A stretch of 64,000 nucleotides of DNA from Octopus vulgaris (lineage: Eukaryota). Below the pieces are notes generated by a model that was given only the letters and a program-made list of their open reading frames with translations, was not told where the DNA came from and searched no databases. The stretch covers positions 7,688,001-7,752,000 of the forward strand of contig OX597827.1 in NCBI GenBank assembly GCA_951406725.2, in the 5' to 3' direction. Position numbers and translations under genes: made by a program. Below are positions 1 through 61,690 of this stretch, piece after piece; positions within the stretch are counted from its first letter, which is position 1, and every line of letters begins with the position of its first letter.

Positions 1-344
1 ATTTCAATAATACTTATGAAAGATTTTTTATTCCGAACAGCTACATCGACCATACTATGACATTCTGTATTATATTTGCAAAGAGACTCAGCATCCAAGA
101 TCACTGCAGTATACAGTTTTCCCGTTTTTGTTACATTGAACAAATTTAAATTTCCACTCTTTTGCAGTTGACTAAATGTTATATGGTTGTACTTATGTAA
201 TATAACATTTTCTAACACGTGAATGTCATCAGCAACATCTCCCACAATGGTGTTGGGTCCTTGACCCTCTTTTATGTGGTAGGTGATATCTGCACTGAAT
301 GACGTCTCGAGAAGAAACATTACGATGGACACTTGTACCAGCAT
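1..344 (-). CDS. Protocadherin, N-terminal part of the large ectodomain exon (signal peptide + EC1); continues beyond the window start
   Basis: Hand translation from the ATG at 344: MLVQVSIVMFLLETSFSADITYHIKEGQGPNTIVGDVADDIHVLENVILHKYNHITFSQLQKSGNLNLFNVTKTGKLYTAVILDAESLCKYNTECHSMVDVAVRNKKSFISIIE, open to position 1. It has a hydrophobic signal peptide, cadherin EC1 hallmarks (Y-x-I-x-E, VGDVA, TGKLYT, LDAE in place of LDRE) and the C-X5-C loop of protocadherin EC1. An in-frame TAA lies upstream of the ATG. Confidence 0.95.
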   Translation of the reverse strand, partial: MLVQVSIVMFLLETSFSADITYHIKEGQGPNTIVGDVADDIHVLENVILHKYNHITFSQLQKSGNLNLFNVTKTGKLYTAVILDAESLCKYNTECHSMVDVAVRNKKSFISIIE

Positions 345-434
345 GTCATCAGAAGATATCCTTATTTGTGTTCTTTACAAAGAATTTGTAAAACATTTGG
401 CTACATGTATATCTGTCACAATTACATGCTTAAT
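345..434 (-). other. 5'UTR part of the protocadherin ectodomain exon, splice acceptor at 436-435
   Basis: Minus strand ttttttttcatataatttcag|ATTAAGC: pyrimidine tract plus CAG, 90 nt upstream of the ATG. Confidence 0.75.
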
Positions 435-16741: not shown

Positions 16742-17788
16742 CAAAGTCATATTAAAATTTCTGGAATGTTAAAATTTAATTTTAATTTAATCAGTGTTCT
16801 CTCGAAAATTCTTAACTGTTACTTTCTTACATATTTATGACTGAAAATATTTCATTATTAACATTATTGAAAAATAATGTTAAGACTTATTATTGAACAA
16901 CCAAATGCAGAATTTTCAAATGACTTTCTTCTTGTGAATTACACAATATTTTTTTTTTTAGAAAAATTATTATGTTGAGAACGATATATTTTATTTGAAA
17001 GTATTTCTTCAGAATTCAAAGAAAGAGGGTATGTTTTGAATTACTTTTCCAAATATTTTTCCTCTGCTCTTGCAATACACTGAATTTAAAGTAAAAGATT
17101 GGTTAACTTAAAGTAATCTTTCATGTAAACATGAGATGTATTTTGAATACGTTGCTGCTTTTTGTTTGTAATCAGGAAGTATTTAAAATATTCAAAAGAG
17201 AACATGGAATAAAATCTATTTATTTGATGAATATATTTTAAAATCTGAATAGTATATATTGATTTCAGATTATATAGACTATAAGTCTGATTTTGTGCAT
17301 TTTAAATGTCTATAGAGTCTTTCTCAAGCAACTTTCTATATCATTTGAATTTTAGCTTATCAATGAATTGCATATGGCAAATAGTTTAGTCTTAATTTGA
17401 CTTTTTAAATATATTTTAATTAGCCGAATTCCTTCTGTTTTTTTGTTTTTTTTAGCATTACTCATTGCTAAATTGTTTTCACTGGATCCTCAAAAACATT
17501 AATGCATTTGTTAAAAAAAACTTTTATCTGGATCATTTTCTAAAATTATTATTATTCTAAAATTTTAGAAATTATTATCATTGTGAATAGCATTCACATG
17601 GATTGAATTTGATAGATCACTTCTAAAGCAGCTTCAAAGAGATGGTGTCCTGAAATTATTCCAAAATTTGAATTTAACCCTTACCATAGATGAAATTTTT
17701 GCCGGTGATGTGATATGCTAATCATATGCAAATCAGTTCCTGCAACCTCTTTGTATTGGCCAGTAAAAATAAAATGTGTGTACTACAT

Positions 17789-18199
17789 AGGCGCAGGAGT
17801 GGCTGTGTGGTAAGTAGCTTGCTAACCAGCCACATGGTTCCAGGTTCAGTCCCACTGCGTGGCATCTTGGGCAAGTGTCTTCTGCTATAGCCCCGGGCCG
17901 ACCAATGCCTTGTGAGTGGATTTGGTAGACGGAAACTGAAAGAAGCCTGTCGTATATATGTATATATATACAAGTGTGTGTGTATGTGTTTGTGTGTCTG
18001 TGTTTGTCCCCCTAGCATTGCTTGACAACCGATGCTGGTGTGTTTACGTCCCCGTCACTTTGCGGTTCGGCAAAAGAGACCGATAGAATAAGTACTGGGC
18101 TTACAAAAGAATAAGTCCCGGGGTCGATTTGCTCGACTAAAGGCGGTGCTCCAGCATGGCCGCAGTCAAATGACTGAAACAAGTAAAAGAAAGAATAAA
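17789..18199 (+). mobile_element. SINE family A, full length (young subtype)
   Basis: Nearly identical to 49383-49803. Confidence 0.93.
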
Positions 18200-19194
18200 A
18201 ACAACATATGAAATGTGGAGAACTCAGGAAAGTGCCCCACGATCAAAACAAATGAACAGACATCCCTGAGTCTCAAGTGCACATGCACAGAACCAAGTAT
18301 ATCTGATTCCCATGCAGTAAATATTAATATATAGTTGGTTATTTCACAGAGATATTAGGATTAAGAGCAGTTATTTAAAGCTGAAAAAATTATAATTTCA
18401 CTGCAATAAATAAATAATTAAATAATAATGCCCAATTACTTACTTCGAAATGCTTAAATGATAAGTAGTTTTAAAAAAGATGTGATTGCTATAAAGTAAG
18501 ACTCTATATAAAATTTTCTTAATGTATAAATTGAATATGTAATTTAGCCATAACTGAACATTTGCAGAATTCTTTGATTGTGGTCAATGTTCCATATATT
18601 AACTACAGACAATTCTATTAATGCTCACTTTAGCATAACCAAAGATCCTATATGGTTTTATGCCTTAAATTCTAGATTTCTAAATTAAAATTGCTATGAC
18701 ATCATGCTTATTCCATGATCAAGTCTGTATTTAAGGAAATTGCTTCTTAAATATTCAAGATGATGAATTTTTTTTGTATAAAATATACTATTGCAACTAT
18801 GGTTAAGTATTGAATAAGCATCACTTTTAAATAAGTACTGGGTCAATTTGTTTAACTTAACCCTTCAAGGTGATCCCCAAGGATGACCACAGTCCAGTGA
18901 CTGAAACAAACGATTAAAAACAAGTTTAAATGACCTCCAATTTTAAGTCCTGTCAAGTCGATGGTTTTAGTCCCCCTTTTTTTATGGTAGAGGAAAGTGG
19001 ACCTTTAAAATCTAACAAGTCAAGTCTATGATTTGCCTTTGATCTTCATTTGAAATGACTGCAATTCTCTTTGAACTTGTGATGGTTTGAATAGAAATTT
19101 CTTTGATGTTTGTACTTTTCTTCGTTTTTGTCCTGTTCAAGTCATAATTTTCATTCTGTGTTTAAGACAAGACATCCTATGAATATATATATAC

Positions 19195-20959: not shown

Positions 20960-21612
20960 AATTTAATTTGGGCCCATGCAACTTGTAGTTTCAACTGTGG
21001 TTCCAGAAATTCTGAGCTGGAAACTACAGCCTAGAAGACAAGCCTCATCCTAGAAGATCTGTAGAGCTTGACAAGGACGTCCAGCCAACCCTAGTGGAAG
21101 AAAATCCCATCGTAACTGTTGAGAAACTAGCAGAAAATCTTGGATTTGGTCATTCAACCTTTCATCGACACCTACACTAGAAGAAAAACAACCATCTTTG
21201 GTTTCAAGATGAAAGGTGTTCTTCCATCAGGATAATGCTCAGCCACATACAGCGAGGATGACATTCCAAAGGCTGGAGAAGTTTGAATGGGAAACGATAC
21301 CCCACACACCATATTCATCAGACATTGCTGCACTTGATTATCATTTATTTTGCAGTCTTCAAAATGTTTTGGGCAGGAAAAATATGAATTCTGCAGATGA
21401 GGTCAGAACAGTACTGGAGGAATATTTTCTGTCACGGACAAGTGAATTTTTGAAGAAGGGGCCTTGCAAATCTATAAGATAGCTGAAAGAGCAGTGTAGA
21501 AAATGAAGAAGAGTATATTTTAGATTTTAAAAAAACCAACAACTTTGTTTATCTTAATTTTGAAAAATAAAAGAAATATGAAGAACTGCATTATTTATGG
21601 GATGACACAATA
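20960..21612 (+). mobile_element. Decayed, internally deleted mariner transposon (DD34D-type)
   Basis: FFHQDNAQPH...IPHTPYSSDIAALDYHLF matches mariner HDNARPH / HPPYSPDLAPSDYHLF. Upstream HTH remnant LEDKPHPRR...EENPIVTVEKLAENLG. TIR-like end ttatttatgggatgacacaata. Confidence 0.9.
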
Positions 21613-22622: not shown

Positions 22623-24859
22623 TAGGGTGTTGTACTCATGGGTGTAAGATTGGTATTTCATTTACCGGATGATGTAGCGCATTGTGTTCTTGAGCAAAAC
22701 ACTTCATTTTCCATTACTCAAGTTAACTCAAACAGGCAAATACAAGTGATCCTTTTATGGAGCAGCATCCCATCCAAGGGAAGAATATATATATATGCCA
22801 CAGAATCTGGGAAACTGGCATTATGAGTCTATGGTTCAGGAAAGACCTTTGATCTTTTTGATATAACAGTTAACAAAATATTTTAGAAGAAGATAAAAGT
22901 TCAATAAATTCAGTTAATGAGTAGCAAACTTTCAGAAACTAATATCTCCTAATTAACCAAAATTAGAAAAGAAATGAACAAATATCATGTTTCTGAAACA
23001 ATCTAAACTCTAACGAAGCAGGGTTTGATTTTCTATATAAATTCATTGATTAAATAGTAAAATCTAAAAGTATTCAAATCTTCATGAACAAAATGTTCTT
23101 CACCAAGAATACAGTAACCTTCATTTCAAAACAGGAATTTGTGTGGGAGAGAAACATACTTCTCATTGGTTTAGGGAAAAGTAATGCTCCATATTAAACA
23201 CTATGTGAAAATGGGTATTAAATTCAATCAAAATCTAATTTGATCGTTTTTGCTATCATTAATGTTCCTAGTTTGGAATAGTTTTACAGCAATTTGCTTA
23301 CAGGGAATTTCCCTGAAGGTATATATTTTCACAGAGGTGTAATTTGTCTTTTCGACATTCATCATGTTATATTTAAACTTCCTTTTTACGCCTACCTGTC
23401 AAGATGTTGGTGAGCTACATATGTTTTTGTGCTATCTAATAGGAAATGTTACCCATGACTTTTCTTCTTTATTGAAACTATTGTAAGATAAGAACATGTC
23501 TTACTGCAAACATTGTCTCATTTTTATTTTTTGACAGCTTCTTGATGAAGTATTCATTTTATCACAGCATACAATCATACACTAGATTCTAAATTTGGAA
23601 CTCTCTTTACATGCTGAAATACAGCTTTAGCTAACAGATGACATTCTTGAAAATTCTGTGAACAAATTCTTTCAGAGTTATTCCAAAAATATGTTTTTAA
23701 TTAAGCTATATTGAATCAGCAACAATAAAAAGTAAAAAAAAAAAAAAGCAAGAAAGAAACAATATACAAAACATTTAAAAGAAAACAGAAAGGAAAATTA
23801 AAGAATTGATAAAACAACAACTCAGAAATATATAGCTAAACGGGAAATATTTCTTTTAACATCAATATATTTAACACAAATGAAAATTTACATTGTTCAT
23901 GGTCGGCAATAAAAAAATTTGGTAGGAACATGCTCAAGTTCAAACACAAATAAACAATGGCTGACAACATCAGGCATTGGAAGTAAAAAATATATAATAT
24001 TTCAAAATGAAATGAAGAGAGATGTATTACTGATAATGTATCAAAATAAATCACGAAATAAAGGAATTTTTTCATAAAATGGTTAGGATTTAGATGTTTA
24101 TTTTGAGAAATAAAGGATGAAATCAGTGTCGTAAAAAAGTGACAAAGAGAATTGTCACTATAAATTATTAAAAAAAAAAAAAAAGAAAACTGAAGCATAA
24201 TAAATATGAATCTTGTTGTTAAGGTAAAAACTTAGAAATATTTTCCAATGACTTTGTTTTGTTTTTTGTTTTTTGTTGCAGCAAGTTGCGATAAATTCCT
24301 CTATCACAACCATGCATTACTTCATACACAAGTCGTAAGTTTGTCAAAGTAGCTTGAATTGTTCATCCAATGAGTCGCAGACACAGAGATCTAGATCTTA
24401 AATGATCAGAATATTATTTGCATAATGGTTCCTTTTTGAAATGAACATGATATAGTTCTTTGGATTTTAAAAATTCTTTTTACATTATTTCTTTTTAAAC
24501 ACCCCACCCACCCCAATACACAAACCACCACCACCACCACCAAATACATTTTATGTTCTTTTTCTTTTTTTTTCCCCTTCCTTTCTGTTTGCTATATTTA
24601 GCAAAGCCATTTTAGAAACAGAAATTTCACATTTATGTTTAATTCATGGGACATTATAAGTTGTGTTATGATATTTCCAAACTACTTTATCATGTAATCT
24701 GTGAGAAATTCAACAACTCAGTAGTTTATGTATGAATGTATAATTTTGTAAATACATACTTGCCATCAAGTGGTATTTAATATTTCATAAAACATCTGCT
24801 GTCACTGAAGTTTTTGCCTAATTTCCATGCCTCTGCGTAAAATGTAACTTCGCCATACT

Positions 24860-25131
24860 CTATGCATACGATAATTTGGCTACTGATGGAAATGGCTTGG
24901 CATATGATGTGAAACTGTTTTTTTCTGGTAAATTCCAACATTCTGAAGATGTATTCTGATTGTCGCTGTTTACAGAATTCTTTTTTAAATTATTAGTTTC
25001 ATTTTTGTGGTCAACTTTTGTTTGATAAAAACATCTGGAAGAGGGTTTGATATCTACAGGTTTAGTTAGTACTTGTACTGGCCTGTTTTTGTCTGTGTTC
25101 TGAAGTTGTTTATATTTGCTAGAGTGGACAT
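24860..25131 (-). CDS. Terminal coding exon of the cytoplasmic tail of a second gene, probably a protocadherin
   Basis: Strong acceptor ttttcttttcctctttacag|AT. Phase 1 matches the donor at 28870, giving ...YEELP-D-VHSSKYKQ...PFPSVAKLSYA*, open for 90 codons in very AT-rich DNA. Confidence 0.8.
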
Positions 25132-25262
25132 CTGTAAAGAGGAAAAGAAAACATATAAAATAAGAAAATAACATTTACATCCATTAAACTAAGGTCATTT
25201 TTAAGATTGTAGTTTTTTGGACCATTAATCATACATTTAGAAATTTACAATATTTAGACCTA

Positions 25263-48364: not shown

Positions 48365-49382
48365 CCATGATTTTTCCAGGCATTGCAGTTATAAGATAAT
48401 TAATAATGTGTCAATTAATAATCTAGGACTTTACCCTATAAAATACTGGGTAGAAGGATACATTGGCTGCTATTTTTAACATGTCGAGCGACCAGGTAGA
48501 GGATCCGTCATTTGTTTGATTGTGTGATGAGATTTTTTTTACACCTATATGTATAAAATGCATATATATATCATTGGCAAAAGTTAAAGAGTAAGTCAAA
48601 ACCTGAGAGTTTTGTGTATCGGCACTTATCAAACATGAATTTGTCCATTGTCACTTTGTAATTTGTGATGAAGTAACTTCTAAAATACAAAATTTCGTCA
48701 AAAACGTTAAGAGTAAACCCTGTTGTATGTGACACATTGTACCAGTATCAGAAGTTTGAAAGTGTTTAATTAAAAGAAATTAAGTAATGTGTATGTCAAA
48801 TTGAATAGATCCAAAATGGATAAAAAGCAAAGTCGACCTTGGTGGCGGAATTTGAACTGAAAACATAAACACACTAAGCATTTTGCCCAGCATACTAACA
48901 TTTCTGCCAGCTCACCTCCTTATTCATTTTAGCAATATATTCTTTAATATTCTTATTGCTAAGTATTACTCCCTTACTCTCTTACTTACTTACTCAAAAT
49001 TTCATGGTATTTCACCCCATAACTTTTCTTCTACTAATTTTTGTTCAATGCGACTAATGACTCTGAATTCCTCATACATTTTTCTATCATTTAAGCCTAA
49101 GAAAAGTATACTTTTATTTTAAAATTGAAAGGTTTATGTTAATTGCAGGTGAATAGGTGCTTTACTGCCCCCCTTGAGGTCACAGATATTTTGATGTAAC
49201 TTTTTTCTACTGAACTAAATCTCAAACTATTTATGCCAAAGTGTCCTCTTTAAAACTGTTAACAGTTTGCAATTTTGTTGAGAACTGAATTAGTGGAAGC
49301 TGCTGCAATTGATGAAATGGTGGACTTAAGAATATATTCAACCACCGCCATGGTTGAATGATATATATATATATATATACAT

Positions 49383-49801
49383 AGGCGCAGGAGTGGCTGT
49401 GTGGTAAGTAGCTTACTAACCAACCACATGGTTCCGGGTTCAGTCCCACTGCGTGGCATCTTGGGCAAGTGTCTTCTGCTATAGCCCCGGGCCGACCAAT
49501 GCCTTGTGAGTGGATTTGGTAGACGGAAACTGAAAGAAACCTGTCGTATATATGTATATATGTATATATATATATGTATGTGTGTGTATGTGTTTGTGTG
49601 TCTGTGTTTGTCCCCCTAGCATTGCTTGACAACCGATGCTGGTGTGTTTACGTCCCCGTCACTTAGCGGTTCGGCAAAAGAGACCGATAGAATAAGTACT
49701 GGGCTTACAAAGAATAAGTCCCGGGGTCGATTTGCTCGACTAAAGGCGGAGCACCAGCATGGCCACAGTCAAATGACTGAAACATATAAAAGAGTAAAAG
49801 A

Positions 49802-53461: not shown

Positions 53462-53492
<31 letters not shown>

Positions 53493-53544
53493 TGTATGTA
53501 TGTATATATGTATGTATGTATGTATAAGTATATACACACTTTAG

Positions 53545-54115
53545 ATAGTTTAAATTTTTTTTAATATGTTTTATATTGTGTTTGTCGACTGGTTTCGCTT
53601 TTGCTAATCATGACATTAAAATTATTTTAATCACATATTTTCTTTGGTAAAATTCTTTTTGTCCGTGTTGTTGTGTGGAGTTTATGAATGAATGATTCAA
53701 CAAGTAGAAAAATCTAAGGGGAGGTAATTAGTGATTATTATTATTGTTGACAGGGGAGATAATTGTTCATCTTTTGGCAGGGAGGAAAAATGTGTACAAA
53801 AATTCAAAAGCTAGAGTAGTGAGGAGAAGTATGTACAATGATGGTTATGTAAGCATGAATTAAAATATGTATAGTGATCAAAGTTGGTTATGCATGCGTC
53901 TTTAGACGTGTTCTGTATTTGTCACTGAATAAATTTTCTTTATTTAAATGATTTTGTATAGAAATTGTATCTTTGCACTGGTAGAAGGGAAAAGCTGTGA
54001 AATTTTGTTTGATGTTACCTGCACATCTCCCTCTGTGTTCACTTAAAGGAATTTGTCTGTATTGCAGGAACCAGATATGCTCTTTATGTAAAGTGGTTCT
54101 CTGTCCCAATGTCAT
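53545..54115 (-). mobile_element. Penelope-like retrotransposon 3' end (GIY-YIG C-terminus plus pseudo-LTR)
   Basis: ORF 53888-54115 TLGQRTTLHKEHI...YRQIPLSEH...CA...FPFYQC...KENLFSDKY fits the R...H...H...E pattern of PLE GIY-YIG endonucleases. A hammerhead lies ~270 nt downstream of the stop. Confidence 0.75.
53583..53615 (-). ncRNA. Minimal type-I hammerhead ribozyme motif with A3-U8 core covariation
   Basis: UGUC AUGAUUA GC AAAA GC GAAA CCAG UC GACA; GUC cleavage triplet; lies in the 3' region of a Penelope relic. Confidence 0.7.
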
Positions 54116-54130
54116 ATATTTATATATATA

Positions 54131-55008
54131 CAGTGTGATGTGTAAATTGTTGCCATTTTATATTTTTAATTTCATGCATGCACTTTGCTTGTTTTGATTT
54201 TGCTGACTACACAGTATATTAGGGTCAGTTGGGCACTGCCTGTGAGAAAACCAACAGTATGACACAATTACTTTGCCAAAAAGTTTGGAAACGGCATGCT
54301 GTACTGCTTGGCATTTGCAACGGAAGCTCGAATACAAACATTTTGGAGTGTTTGGGTGTCAATCTGAGGACAGTGCAATCTGAGGACATGTACCTAGAGT
54401 GATCAAAATAAAACATCTAGTCAACATCATGGTGTCTGGAATGATAACTAGTGATGGCAACGTTATGCCCCCATTCATCTTCCCACACCACCTTAGACTC
54501 AACGTGGAGGTCTACACCAAGTGCTTGGAGGGAGTAGTGCTGCCTTGGGTCAAGAGGATGGCTACTGGAAGACCCTATGTCTGGCAACAGGACTCTGCAC
54601 CATATGACACAAGCAGGAGAACCCGGTGATGGCTGTCAGGCAATTTCTGAAGCCACATCACTCCTAATACTTGGCCACCTAACTCTCCAGACTGCAACCC
54701 CCTGATTATTACGTGTGGGGTGCAGTTGAGTGACAGACCAACAAAACTCCTTGTAACACTAAAGAGGAACTGAAGGCAAGGATTATGGTAACATTTATCA
54801 ACTTAAACAAGGAGACCATCCAGAAGAGTTGCAGGTGATTCGTCCACAGGCCAAGGTTGAAGCCAATGGTGGTTCTATTAAATGAATTTATTCTTTAGTA
54901 TTTCAAGATATTTCTTTGTAATTTTGATAAATATATCTGTTAAAATGAAATGTCAGTCTTATTTTCATTTTTGTGTAATTTAGACAGCAATTTATTCACT
55001 GCACCCTG
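54131..55008 (+). mobile_element. Decayed Tc1/mariner-superfamily transposon, maT (DD37D) type
   Basis: YVWQQDSAP...WPPNSPDCNP(L)DYYVWG with 37 residues between the last two Asp once a 1-bp frameshift is restored. Degenerate TIRs cagtgtgatgtgtaaattg / caatttattcactgcaccctg, flanked by TA. Confidence 0.88.
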
Positions 55009-55582
55009 TATGTATTATATATATATATATTGGGGTGTCGTCGCCGTTCGCGTTTTAGTGGTAGTAGTGCGTCCACCTCCTGGTCGTTTCGGCCTGCACG
55101 GTTCCTCCAAGGGTGCTCAGAGTGAGCACCGCCAGCTTGCATATATATTTATATATCTACATTTTGGTTAACTTGGTAGAACACAGCCATGGTGTTATGC
55201 GGTGAAACTTACCTCGGAACCACATGGTTGCAAAACAAACATTATAACCACACTGCCAAGCCTATATACACACACACACATGTGTGTGTGTGTATGTGTA
55301 TGTCCGTGTGCGTCCATGTTTGTCTACATATATCATCATCATGGTCATCATCATGACCATGATCATTACTATCATTAATTATGACAATTTTTTTCTTGAG
55401 TTATACACATCATCATGACTCTTATTCCCTTGCATGTTCAGAGCCAAAAACAAAAAAAAAAAAGAACCTTCGAAAATTGATCTACAATCACGAGTGCAAC
55501 TACTCGGCCGCATGCCTTCTAATGCAGTTTGTTATAAATAAAAGTAAAATGAAGTGAGATATAGTTATCTCTCTCTCTCTTT

Positions 55583-55783
55583 CTCTTTTACTTGTTTCAG
55601 TCATCTGACTGCGGCCATGCTGGAGCACCGCCTTTAGTCGAGCAAATCGACCCTGGGACTTATTCTTTGTAAGCCCAGTACTTATTCTATCGGTCTCTTT
55701 TGCCAAAACGGTAAGTGACGGGGACGTAAACACACCAGCATCGGTTGTCAAGCAATGCTAGGGGGACAAACACAGACACACAT

Positions 55784-55828
<45 letters not shown>

Positions 55829-55988
55829 TACGACAGGCTTCTTTCAGTTTCCGTCTACCAAATCCACTCACAAGGCATTGGTCGGCCCGGGGCTATAGCA
55901 GAAGACAGTTGCCCAAGATGTCACGCAGTGGGACTGAACCCGGAACCATGTGGTTGGTTAGCAAGCTACTTACCACACAGCCACTCCT
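55583..55988 (-). mobile_element. SINE family A, near full length (young subtype)
   Basis: Reverse complement of 49383-49803. Confidence 0.93.
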
Positions 55989-56536
55989 AAGGATTAAAAG
56001 ACTACTATGTGTACTCGGACTGGGTGGATACAAAGATGTCTTTATAGAATATATAAGTAGAGAACCAGAAATTATGGGGATGTTTGTTACATTTGATGGT
56101 GCATATGGAAAGACCGTTATACCATCAGAAAATGTACTGCCTGTATTTAAATAAACACAGTGCTTATAGAGAAAGAATAAGATATAAGGATGAGAAGGGA
56201 ATGAGGAAGAGGTGGCCATGGGTGGAAGAGCAGTAGTTAAATTAATAAACACTTGAGAGATTTTTAAAATTGAGCTATAATTAAATTGAACATTCTTCTT
56301 TTGCTTCTGCTAATAGTACTGATTGATTGATTGATTCCAGTTTCAGCTTATGAGCTGTGGCTATGCTGGGGCACCGCCACAAATTTAACTAGGCATGTGA
56401 TCAACAATTGTAACTTAAATGTAGAGTGTGTATAAAAATACAAAATATGAATAATATATAAATATATGCATATACACATACATATATGTACATATATGCA
56501 TATATGCATATACATAAACATATATGTACATACAAA

Positions 56537-61041: not shown

Positions 61042-61415
61042 CTCTTACTCTTTTACTCTTTTACTTGTTTCAGTCATTTGACTGCGGCCATGCTGGAGCA
61101 CCACCTTTTAGTACTTATTCTATCGGTCTCTTTTTGCCGAACCGCTAGGTGACGGGGACCTAAACACACCAGCATCGGTTGTCAAGCAATGCTAGGGGGA
61201 CAGACACAGACACACAAACACACGCATACATATATATATATACATATATACGACAGGCTTCTTTCAGTTTCCGTCTACCAAATCCACTCACAAGGCATTG
61301 GTCGGCCCGGGGCTATAGCAGAAGACACTTGCCCAAGATGCCACGCAGTGGGACTGAACCCACAACCATGTGGCTGGTTAGCAAGCTACTTACCACACAG
61401 CCACTCCTGCGCCTA
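60782..61415 (-). mobile_element. SINE family A with duplicated 3' half
   Basis: 61039-61415 is a full copy with a deletion in its 3' body; 60782-61038 is a second, intact 3' half. Confidence 0.9.
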
Positions 61416-61690
61416 TACTGCTTGACTCTCAATTAAATTACTGAGGGAATGTTTAGTAGATCGTTCAGGATTATGTCTCCACAGATGAGATACAAAACCT
61501 CAGCACTTCATCAACTTAATATGCTGTCATCTTATGCACTTTCCCATGCTAAGCTAACGCTGTTCTCTTTCTCCCTTTCCCTCATTCTGCACTCTGTGAA
61601 CATTCTTTTATTTATTTATTCTTTTATTTGTTTCGGTCATTAGACTTCCGCCATGGTGGGGCACTAGCATGAAGAATTTTAATCCCAACC

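Follow-up and report, generated by a model that had tools for sequence, protein, structure and literature searches.

The stretch of Octopus vulgaris DNA analysed here (64,000 nucleotides, hereafter the window) carries a minimal type I hammerhead motif of 33 nt whose core has an A3-U8 pair in the place of the usual C3-G8. The motif is real as a hammerhead architecture and belongs to a known kind, the hammerheads of Penelope-like elements; the A3-U8 swap is the unusual part. The explanation that we favour, with moderate confidence, is that the motif is the pseudo-LTR hammerhead at the 3' end of a 5'-truncated Penelope-like element, that A3-U8 is probably family-wide, and that intact copies are predicted to cleave slowly and as dimers. 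The fragment and its adjoining sequence consist of the following features:

53548..54120, minus strand: 5'-truncated retroelement fragment, ends approximate, made up of the endonuclease end, a 3' UTR/pseudo-LTR, the hammerhead and a tail of about 30-40 nt
53888..54115, minus strand: C-terminal half of a Penelope-like GIY-YIG endonuclease, with R, H, H and E kept and a stop codon
53692..53739, no strand assigned: second well-covered block of the 3' UTR
53583..53615, minus strand: minimal type I hammerhead motif, with core A3 (53611) and U8 (53606) and a short stem III
53463..53525, no strand assigned: (TATG)n microsatellite adjoining the 3' end of the element

Sequence reading and a pattern scan recovered the hammerhead-type motif letter for letter at 53583-53615, with its core 276 nt behind the stop codon of the endonuclease relic. 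On the minus strand, C2.1 lies at 53612, A3 at 53611, U8 at 53606 and A9 at 53605, followed by G10.1-C11.1 (53604/53597), G12 (53596), A15.1 (53593), U16.1 (53588), C17 (53587) and G1.1 (53586), so that the predicted cut falls between 53587 and 53586. Stem I has 4 bp and is closed by C2.1-G1.1, and stem II has 2 bp with a 4-nt loop and starts with G10.1-C11.1. The core reads A3 U4 G5 A6 U7 U8 A9, then G12 A13 A14 A15.1, CCAG, U16.1 and C17, and matches the consensus at U4, G5, A6, A9, G12, A13, A14, A15.1, U16.1 and H17. C3 and G8 of the strict consensus are absent; A3 and U8 stand in their places as the sole core departures and are able to pair, and since a Watson-Crick 3-8 pair is retained the motif was classed as a hammerhead variant. 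The first-pass annotation had quoted the same letters and placed both departures at positions 3 and 8 with restoration of a Watson-Crick pair, which reading and numbering confirmed.

A compact type I descriptor that accepts any Watson-Crick 3-8 pair matched one site on the two strands of the 64-kb window, with 0.027 matches per window expected by chance (300 dinucleotide-keeping shuffles). A looser scan of the window gave one further match, at 24402, which is AT-rich and has a non-Watson-Crick 3-8 combination. No hammerhead family was present among 102 Rfam matches with E values up to 10. A parse with an inserted nucleotide (an additional A behind C3) was discarded, as it leaves G1.1 unpaired and U8 still in place. 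When positions 3, 7 and 8 were left free, the pattern had no match in viral contigs, and its two matches in metagenome contigs were set aside as chance, both lying in apparent bacterial coding DNA and lacking stem I.

The open reading frame at 53888-54115 gave no Pfam match and no word-search candidate. A phmmer search with the relic over 1.84 billion proteins returned 22 relatives (E up to 0.001, best 3e-13), and among the 14 of these compared with Pfam, nine reach the GIY-YIG (PF01541) cut-off, one falls below it and four have no match. The 745-aa relative P0012 matches RVT_1 too, and the relic aligns to its residues 671-738 with 39% identity; the reverse transcriptase upstream in this ORF is absent from the truncated copy. 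In the alignment the window relic begins just behind the YIG of its relatives, and the window holds the last 75 codons; the ATG is thus an internal methionine, and the GIY-YIG motif was lost by 5' truncation. The long relatives P0012 and P0017 carry GxKF, DKG, a CX4CxxC linker and CCHH, with the linker also found in P0016 and P0003, and two His positions are the only part of CCHH that lies within the window. No longer relative of the relic's family was found at E 1e-5 among 4317 word-search candidates, which is weak evidence. The element resembles Neptune/Nematis (Craig et al. 2021, PMC8557442, as far as the available parts describe them) in its C-terminal GIY-YIG, in relatives with CCHH, a CX2-5CxxC linker and DKG, and in its microsatellite flanks and 5' truncation, the likeness being one of motifs, with the last 75 codons present in the window. 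A Penelope-like origin of the relic is supported, probably of Neptune/Nematis type as judged by the linker, CCHH and DKG of its relatives. The earlier claim that a GIY-YIG-like ORF ties the motif to such an element therefore stands with respect to origin, through the 22 relatives, but not for the GIY-YIG motif itself, which is cut off. A 25-residue match to relative P0002 in a viral contig (L003:1501-1575, E 4e-4) probably represents a generic GIY-YIG nuclease.

Contigs of four public runs with three organism labels were aligned to 53524-54230 at 80% likeness. Three of the runs are DNA and one (X7) is guessed to be RNA, the latter being no evidence of expression; X1 and X4 share many joints, so that tests of conservation in them are not independent. 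The numbers of aligned contigs per run were 3781, 4019, 3593 and 280 (maT end included). Family cover extends from about 53550 to 54120 and is near zero in the flanking microsatellite; it drops in the bin 53548-53571, where aligned pieces start at 53558-53566, which puts the end of the element some 30-40 nt beyond the cleavage site. Although summed contig depth is no copy number, a sum of 12,856 against about 10-19 per contig hints roughly at several hundred to a thousand copies. The repeat nature of the fragment is shown by the contigs. Within the window, blastn detected no second copy, and tandem pseudo-LTRs are not seen. A locus search in genome contigs gave 58 pattern matches, none of which was confirmed. 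The family consensus was not found by motif search in the available parts of the supplements of PMC8557442 and PMC13282606, and the repeat library of the latter might already contain it. The block at 53692-53739 forms a depth peak in all four runs and a weak minus-strand hairpin (z -1.77), and may serve within the pseudo-LTR as a promoter or for the binding of protein. A depth peak as a signal of selection was considered and rejected; the adjacent trough coincides with many window-specific changes.

Comparison of the window copy with its family revealed decay both in the endonuclease and in the ribozyme. Among the best 40 of 386 rows of letter differences, 16 majority letters fall in the ORF, where they change 13 residues and leave two unchanged. 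Changes towards the relatives include W15R, L17P, R28I, Q37P, A41V, H56R, S64I and K72N, which indicates that the window holds a decayed copy of an intact ancestor. Two CpG-type decays lie in the motif of the window copy, at 53590 (CCGG to CCAG) and at 53602 (GAAA to AAAA). Position 53590 is C, giving CCGG, in 84, 82, 81 and 100% of depth across the four runs, which bears out in all four the earlier proposal that CCAG is one CpG-type transition away from palindromic CCGG. Position 53602 is C, giving loop II as GAAA, in 76, 79, 84 and 49%, the last value being that of the guessed-RNA run; the AAAA loop originally described is present in the window copy, as a copy-specific CpG decay, and is not that of the family majority.

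For the two core positions the evidence is indirect. No row for 53611 or 53606 occurs among the best 40 of 386 rows, each of which reaches at least 80% in some run, so that no other letter seems to attain about 80% at either place; elsewhere in the fragment, window-specific changes have shares of 80-100%. The core depth in X1 (13,182) is of the same order as the depth peaks elsewhere in the element (16,675 and 19,531), and A3/U8-like copies are thus no small minority. A3-U8 is therefore very probably the family majority, as judged from the absent rows in an alignment biased toward window look-alikes. The presence of A3 and U8 in other copies, which the first-pass annotation had made a condition of its reading, is to that extent probable. 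As covariation, the swap at 3-8 is visible only against other families, none having been counted within the repeat family itself.

The predicted folds contain stem I (4 bp) and stem II (2 bp). The folding energy of the monomer is no better than that of shuffled sequences (z -0.11), which is expected because minimal motifs work as dimers, and in its predicted fold A3 mispairs with U16.1. For a dimer of the window copy, with CCAG, the pair probability of stem III is 0.0, and pairing runs through the palindrome GUCGAC instead. Exchange of 53590 alone for the majority letter (CCGG) makes the strand-swapped hammerhead dimer the lowest-energy dimer at all three flank lengths, with a probability of 0.63-0.74, and addition of further majority letters gives a stem III pair probability of 0.64-0.80; the energies of the CCGG dimers range from -13.3 to -16.7 kcal/mol. 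All of these are secondary-structure predictions, in which the tertiary 3-8 pair carries no score. The palindromic stem III needed for a dimer is found in the family majority and not in the window copy, which is likely to be inert, since its CCAG does away with the predicted dimer and the window contains no partner motif.

As a rule, C-terminal EN+ elements carry hammerheads in their pseudo-LTRs (Cervera and de la Pena 2014, PMC4209133; this and the other papers compared here are represented by the parts available). The octopus motif shares with the minimal type I hammerheads of that study its place behind RT-EN, the short stem I, G10.1-C11.1 and the dimer requirement, as well as a palindromic stem III with a 2-nt insert, comparable to the fly, mosquito, rotifer and shrimp variants, and its copies, like those of the elements described there, are mostly solitary and truncated. 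In contrast, A3-U8 occurs in none of the 56 representatives in Fig. S3 of PMC4209133 (53 C3-G8, 2 U3-A8 and 1 U3-G8) and in none of the 34 rows of File S2 of Craig et al. (PMC8557442), all of which are C3-G8, both sets being derived mostly from descriptors that demand a canonical core. Moreover, unlike most motifs in PMC4209133, that of the window has a stem II of 2 bp with a GNRA loop and no extra nucleotide after A9. Covariation at 3-8 has natural precedents, also within Penelope-like elements, in the form of U3-A8, the only natural covariation named by Perreault et al. (2011, PMC3088659, available parts), with about 1,300 matches in Cercyon elements of Schistosoma mansoni (PMC4209133). The octopus swap resembles these variants in being a compensatory 3-8 change, there amplified by a Penelope-like element. 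U3-A8 requires two transitions and keeps the pyrimidine-purine order, whereas A3-U8 requires two transversions and inverts it. Within the accessible full-text literature, and under this notation, no natural A3-U8 family was found.

A further comparison is offered by the PAc Poseidon element of Anolis (Frangieh et al. 2024, PMC11167929). PAc likewise carries a pseudo-LTR hammerhead, and its 3-8 pair was tested, with partial rescue by C3G/G8C; it differs in its canonical C3-G8, in belonging to another clade, in an ORF that starts at stem II and in cleavage that needed protein, and hammerhead mutants did not impair its insertion in vitro (PMC11167929, available parts).

In the favoured explanation, A3-U8 would have been fixed in an active master element. 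Two motifs, on one tandem transcript or on two transcripts, would pair via the palindrome ACCGGU and swap their stem I strands; A3-U8 would take over from C3-G8 and bring the general acid, which is the 2'-OH of nucleotide 8, to the leaving group, with G12 acting as the base, and a cut after C17 would release unit-length element RNA. A C at position 17 may also avoid a competing A3-U17 pair. The position of the motif behind the relic and near the element end, which is the usual place of hammerheads in Penelope-like elements, argues for this explanation, and on the dimer model self-cutting of the motif in intact copies is likely. Its cleavage activity is likely to be low, possibly dependent on the element's own protein as in the Anolis element. 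Work by Przybilski and Hammann from 2007 is said to have found cleavage with any Watson-Crick 3-8 pair and a context-dependent preference for a pyrimidine at 3 and a purine at 8. The ribose 2'-OH of nucleotide 8 has been proposed as the general acid and G12 as the base (PMC6155905), and minimal motifs of Penelope-like elements cleave poorly in vitro (PMC4209133). The 2-bp stem II, without the additional nucleotide present in the metazoan minimal consensus (PMC4209133), argues against full activity. The first-pass annotation's premise that the 3-8 pair tolerates compensatory swaps holds in some contexts only: covarying pairs have been active in vitro (PMC3088659), but when all double mutants of a type III hammerhead were scanned, G3-C8 alone was rescued and every other double in that region was low (PMC9901934). 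No rates for A3-U8 were found in the available parts of PMC6795133 and PMC8495972.

A family-wide A3-U8 need not imply catalysis. Cleavage may be dead or negligible and the fold kept because it binds protein, dimerises or overlaps a start codon, or carried along by hitch-hiking, an alternative that we consider rather unlikely. It is in line with the very short stem II, with the rescue of G3-C8 only in one complete scan (PMC9901934), with the dispensability of hammerhead cleavage for insertion in vitro (PMC11167929) and with the success of Naiad elements that thrive without canonical hammerheads (PMC8557442). Against it, the motif has preserved stem I, the palindrome, G10.1-C11.1 and every one of the ten remaining fixed core letters. 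Two changes would moreover fall on a compensable pair, and be complementary, in only about 1 in 100 cases (2/66 position pairs x 1/3), a figure from our own arithmetic for random pairs of core changes that is inflated by the selection of such cases for follow-up. A3-U8 itself is reportedly among the swaps that Przybilski and Hammann found active in vitro in 2007. Activity of Watson-Crick 3-8 swaps in vitro (PMC3088659) also speaks against a dead core.

The remaining alternatives question the family or the motif itself. A family that is mixed or mostly C3-G8, with A3/U8 confined to a subfamily or to the window copy, is improbable. A share of C3 or G8 below about 80% would be compatible with the best 40 of 386 rows, A>C occurs at 3-6 places and T>G at 15-21 per DNA run, mostly outside these 40, and the contig alignment is biased toward window look-alikes; nevertheless, window-specific changes elsewhere have shares of 80-100%, both CpG changes of the motif were recovered at the same depth, ancestral letters of non-CpG type at 53611 and 53606 would be expected to appear likewise, and core depth is comparable to the other peaks of the element. 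A chance look-alike that is no hammerhead at all is highly improbable: the missing Rfam match and the unremarkable monomer energy (z -0.11) would fit it, but not the expectation of 0.027 matches per window, the canonical place in a Penelope-like element, or the majority letters, which improve stem III and loop II and yield the exact dimer fold.

A3, U4 and G5 spell AUG, and the frame that begins there (53611-53561, minus strand) is open for 16 codons, to about the end of family cover. It is conceivable, and in our view quite doubtful, that A3 was fixed because the core AUG is the start codon of an element ORF or of a regulatory uORF, with U8 compensating. A cut after C17 would then sever the AUG from its frame and so couple ribozyme activity to translation. 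The Anolis ORF, which starts inside its hammerhead (PMC11167929), speaks for such an arrangement. Against it speaks the TAA at 53563-53561, spanned by some contigs of the family with no listed majority change. A word search (4317 candidates) found no full-length family protein from which the N-terminus could be read, which is weak evidence. If true, this proposal would point to a hidden class of retroelement hammerheads, uncounted by C3-G8 and U3-A8 descriptors.

The fragment itself is ordinary and decayed; as judged from the aligned copies, its core pair is unusual and probably family-wide. The window copy has no shown effect on a host gene, and it represents no new kind of system. In the available parts of the literature covered, an inverted Watson-Crick 3-8 pair has so far been a laboratory mutant. 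Should a high-copy family work with A3-U8 as its core, an inverted purine-pyrimidine pair would have passed selection in nature. The motif would then also offer a 33-nt natural substrate for studying 3-8 variation without tertiary loops and any compensation for the loss by element protein, and censuses that fix CUGANGA would undercount ribozymes and might wrongly call elements ribozyme-free.

The surroundings of the fragment include the following features:

54116..54130, no strand assigned: (TA)n-like run at the 5' break that served a DNA transposon as target
54131..55008, plus strand: maT (DD37D) DNA transposon in decayed form, with an internal deletion, inverted termini, TA on both sides and loose ends of contigs
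3..374, minus strand: cadherin-like (protocadherin-type) first coding exon (PF08266, E 6e-06)

In the element at 54131-55008 the second and third Asp are 37 residues apart, by an eye count that reads across two stops and a one-base frameshift, which fits maT (DD37D); the element had no Pfam match. Its inverted termini and flanking TA dinucleotides agree with the earlier placement of a maT transposon in the (TA)n at the 5' break; it is a neighbour and no part of the retroelement. The exon at 3-374 encodes a signal peptide and the first cadherin repeat and runs off the left end of the window; like the repeat content, it appears cephalopod-like. The motif does lie on the protocadherin sense strand, as had been claimed, but the suggested link fails: regulation of the protocadherin was rejected, as 53 kb separate the exon from the relic, no transcript connects the two, and sharing a strand is a coin toss.

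Behind the (TA)n to the right of maT lies a GC-rich island of 116 nt (55025-55140, minus strand) that forms a short, strong hairpin. Its 3' half, in which GAAAC follows a GC stem, is hammerhead-like, but CUGANGA and U16.1 are absent. The island has no second copy in the window, no Rfam match and a fold z of -1.14, and three short motifs from it were not found in the available part of the Craig et al. supplement. Elsewhere in the window, 21213-21479 (plus strand), with no Pfam match at E 0.1, is presumably the relic of a mariner-like transposase, judging by the words HQDNA and SSDIA. A 104-codon frame at 24863-25174 (minus strand), with a signal-peptide-like start and no Pfam match, is possibly an exon. 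Many copies of a short interspersed repeat with recurring translations were also observed, at 49231-49768, 55500-55990, 61153-61433, 17725-18242 and other places.
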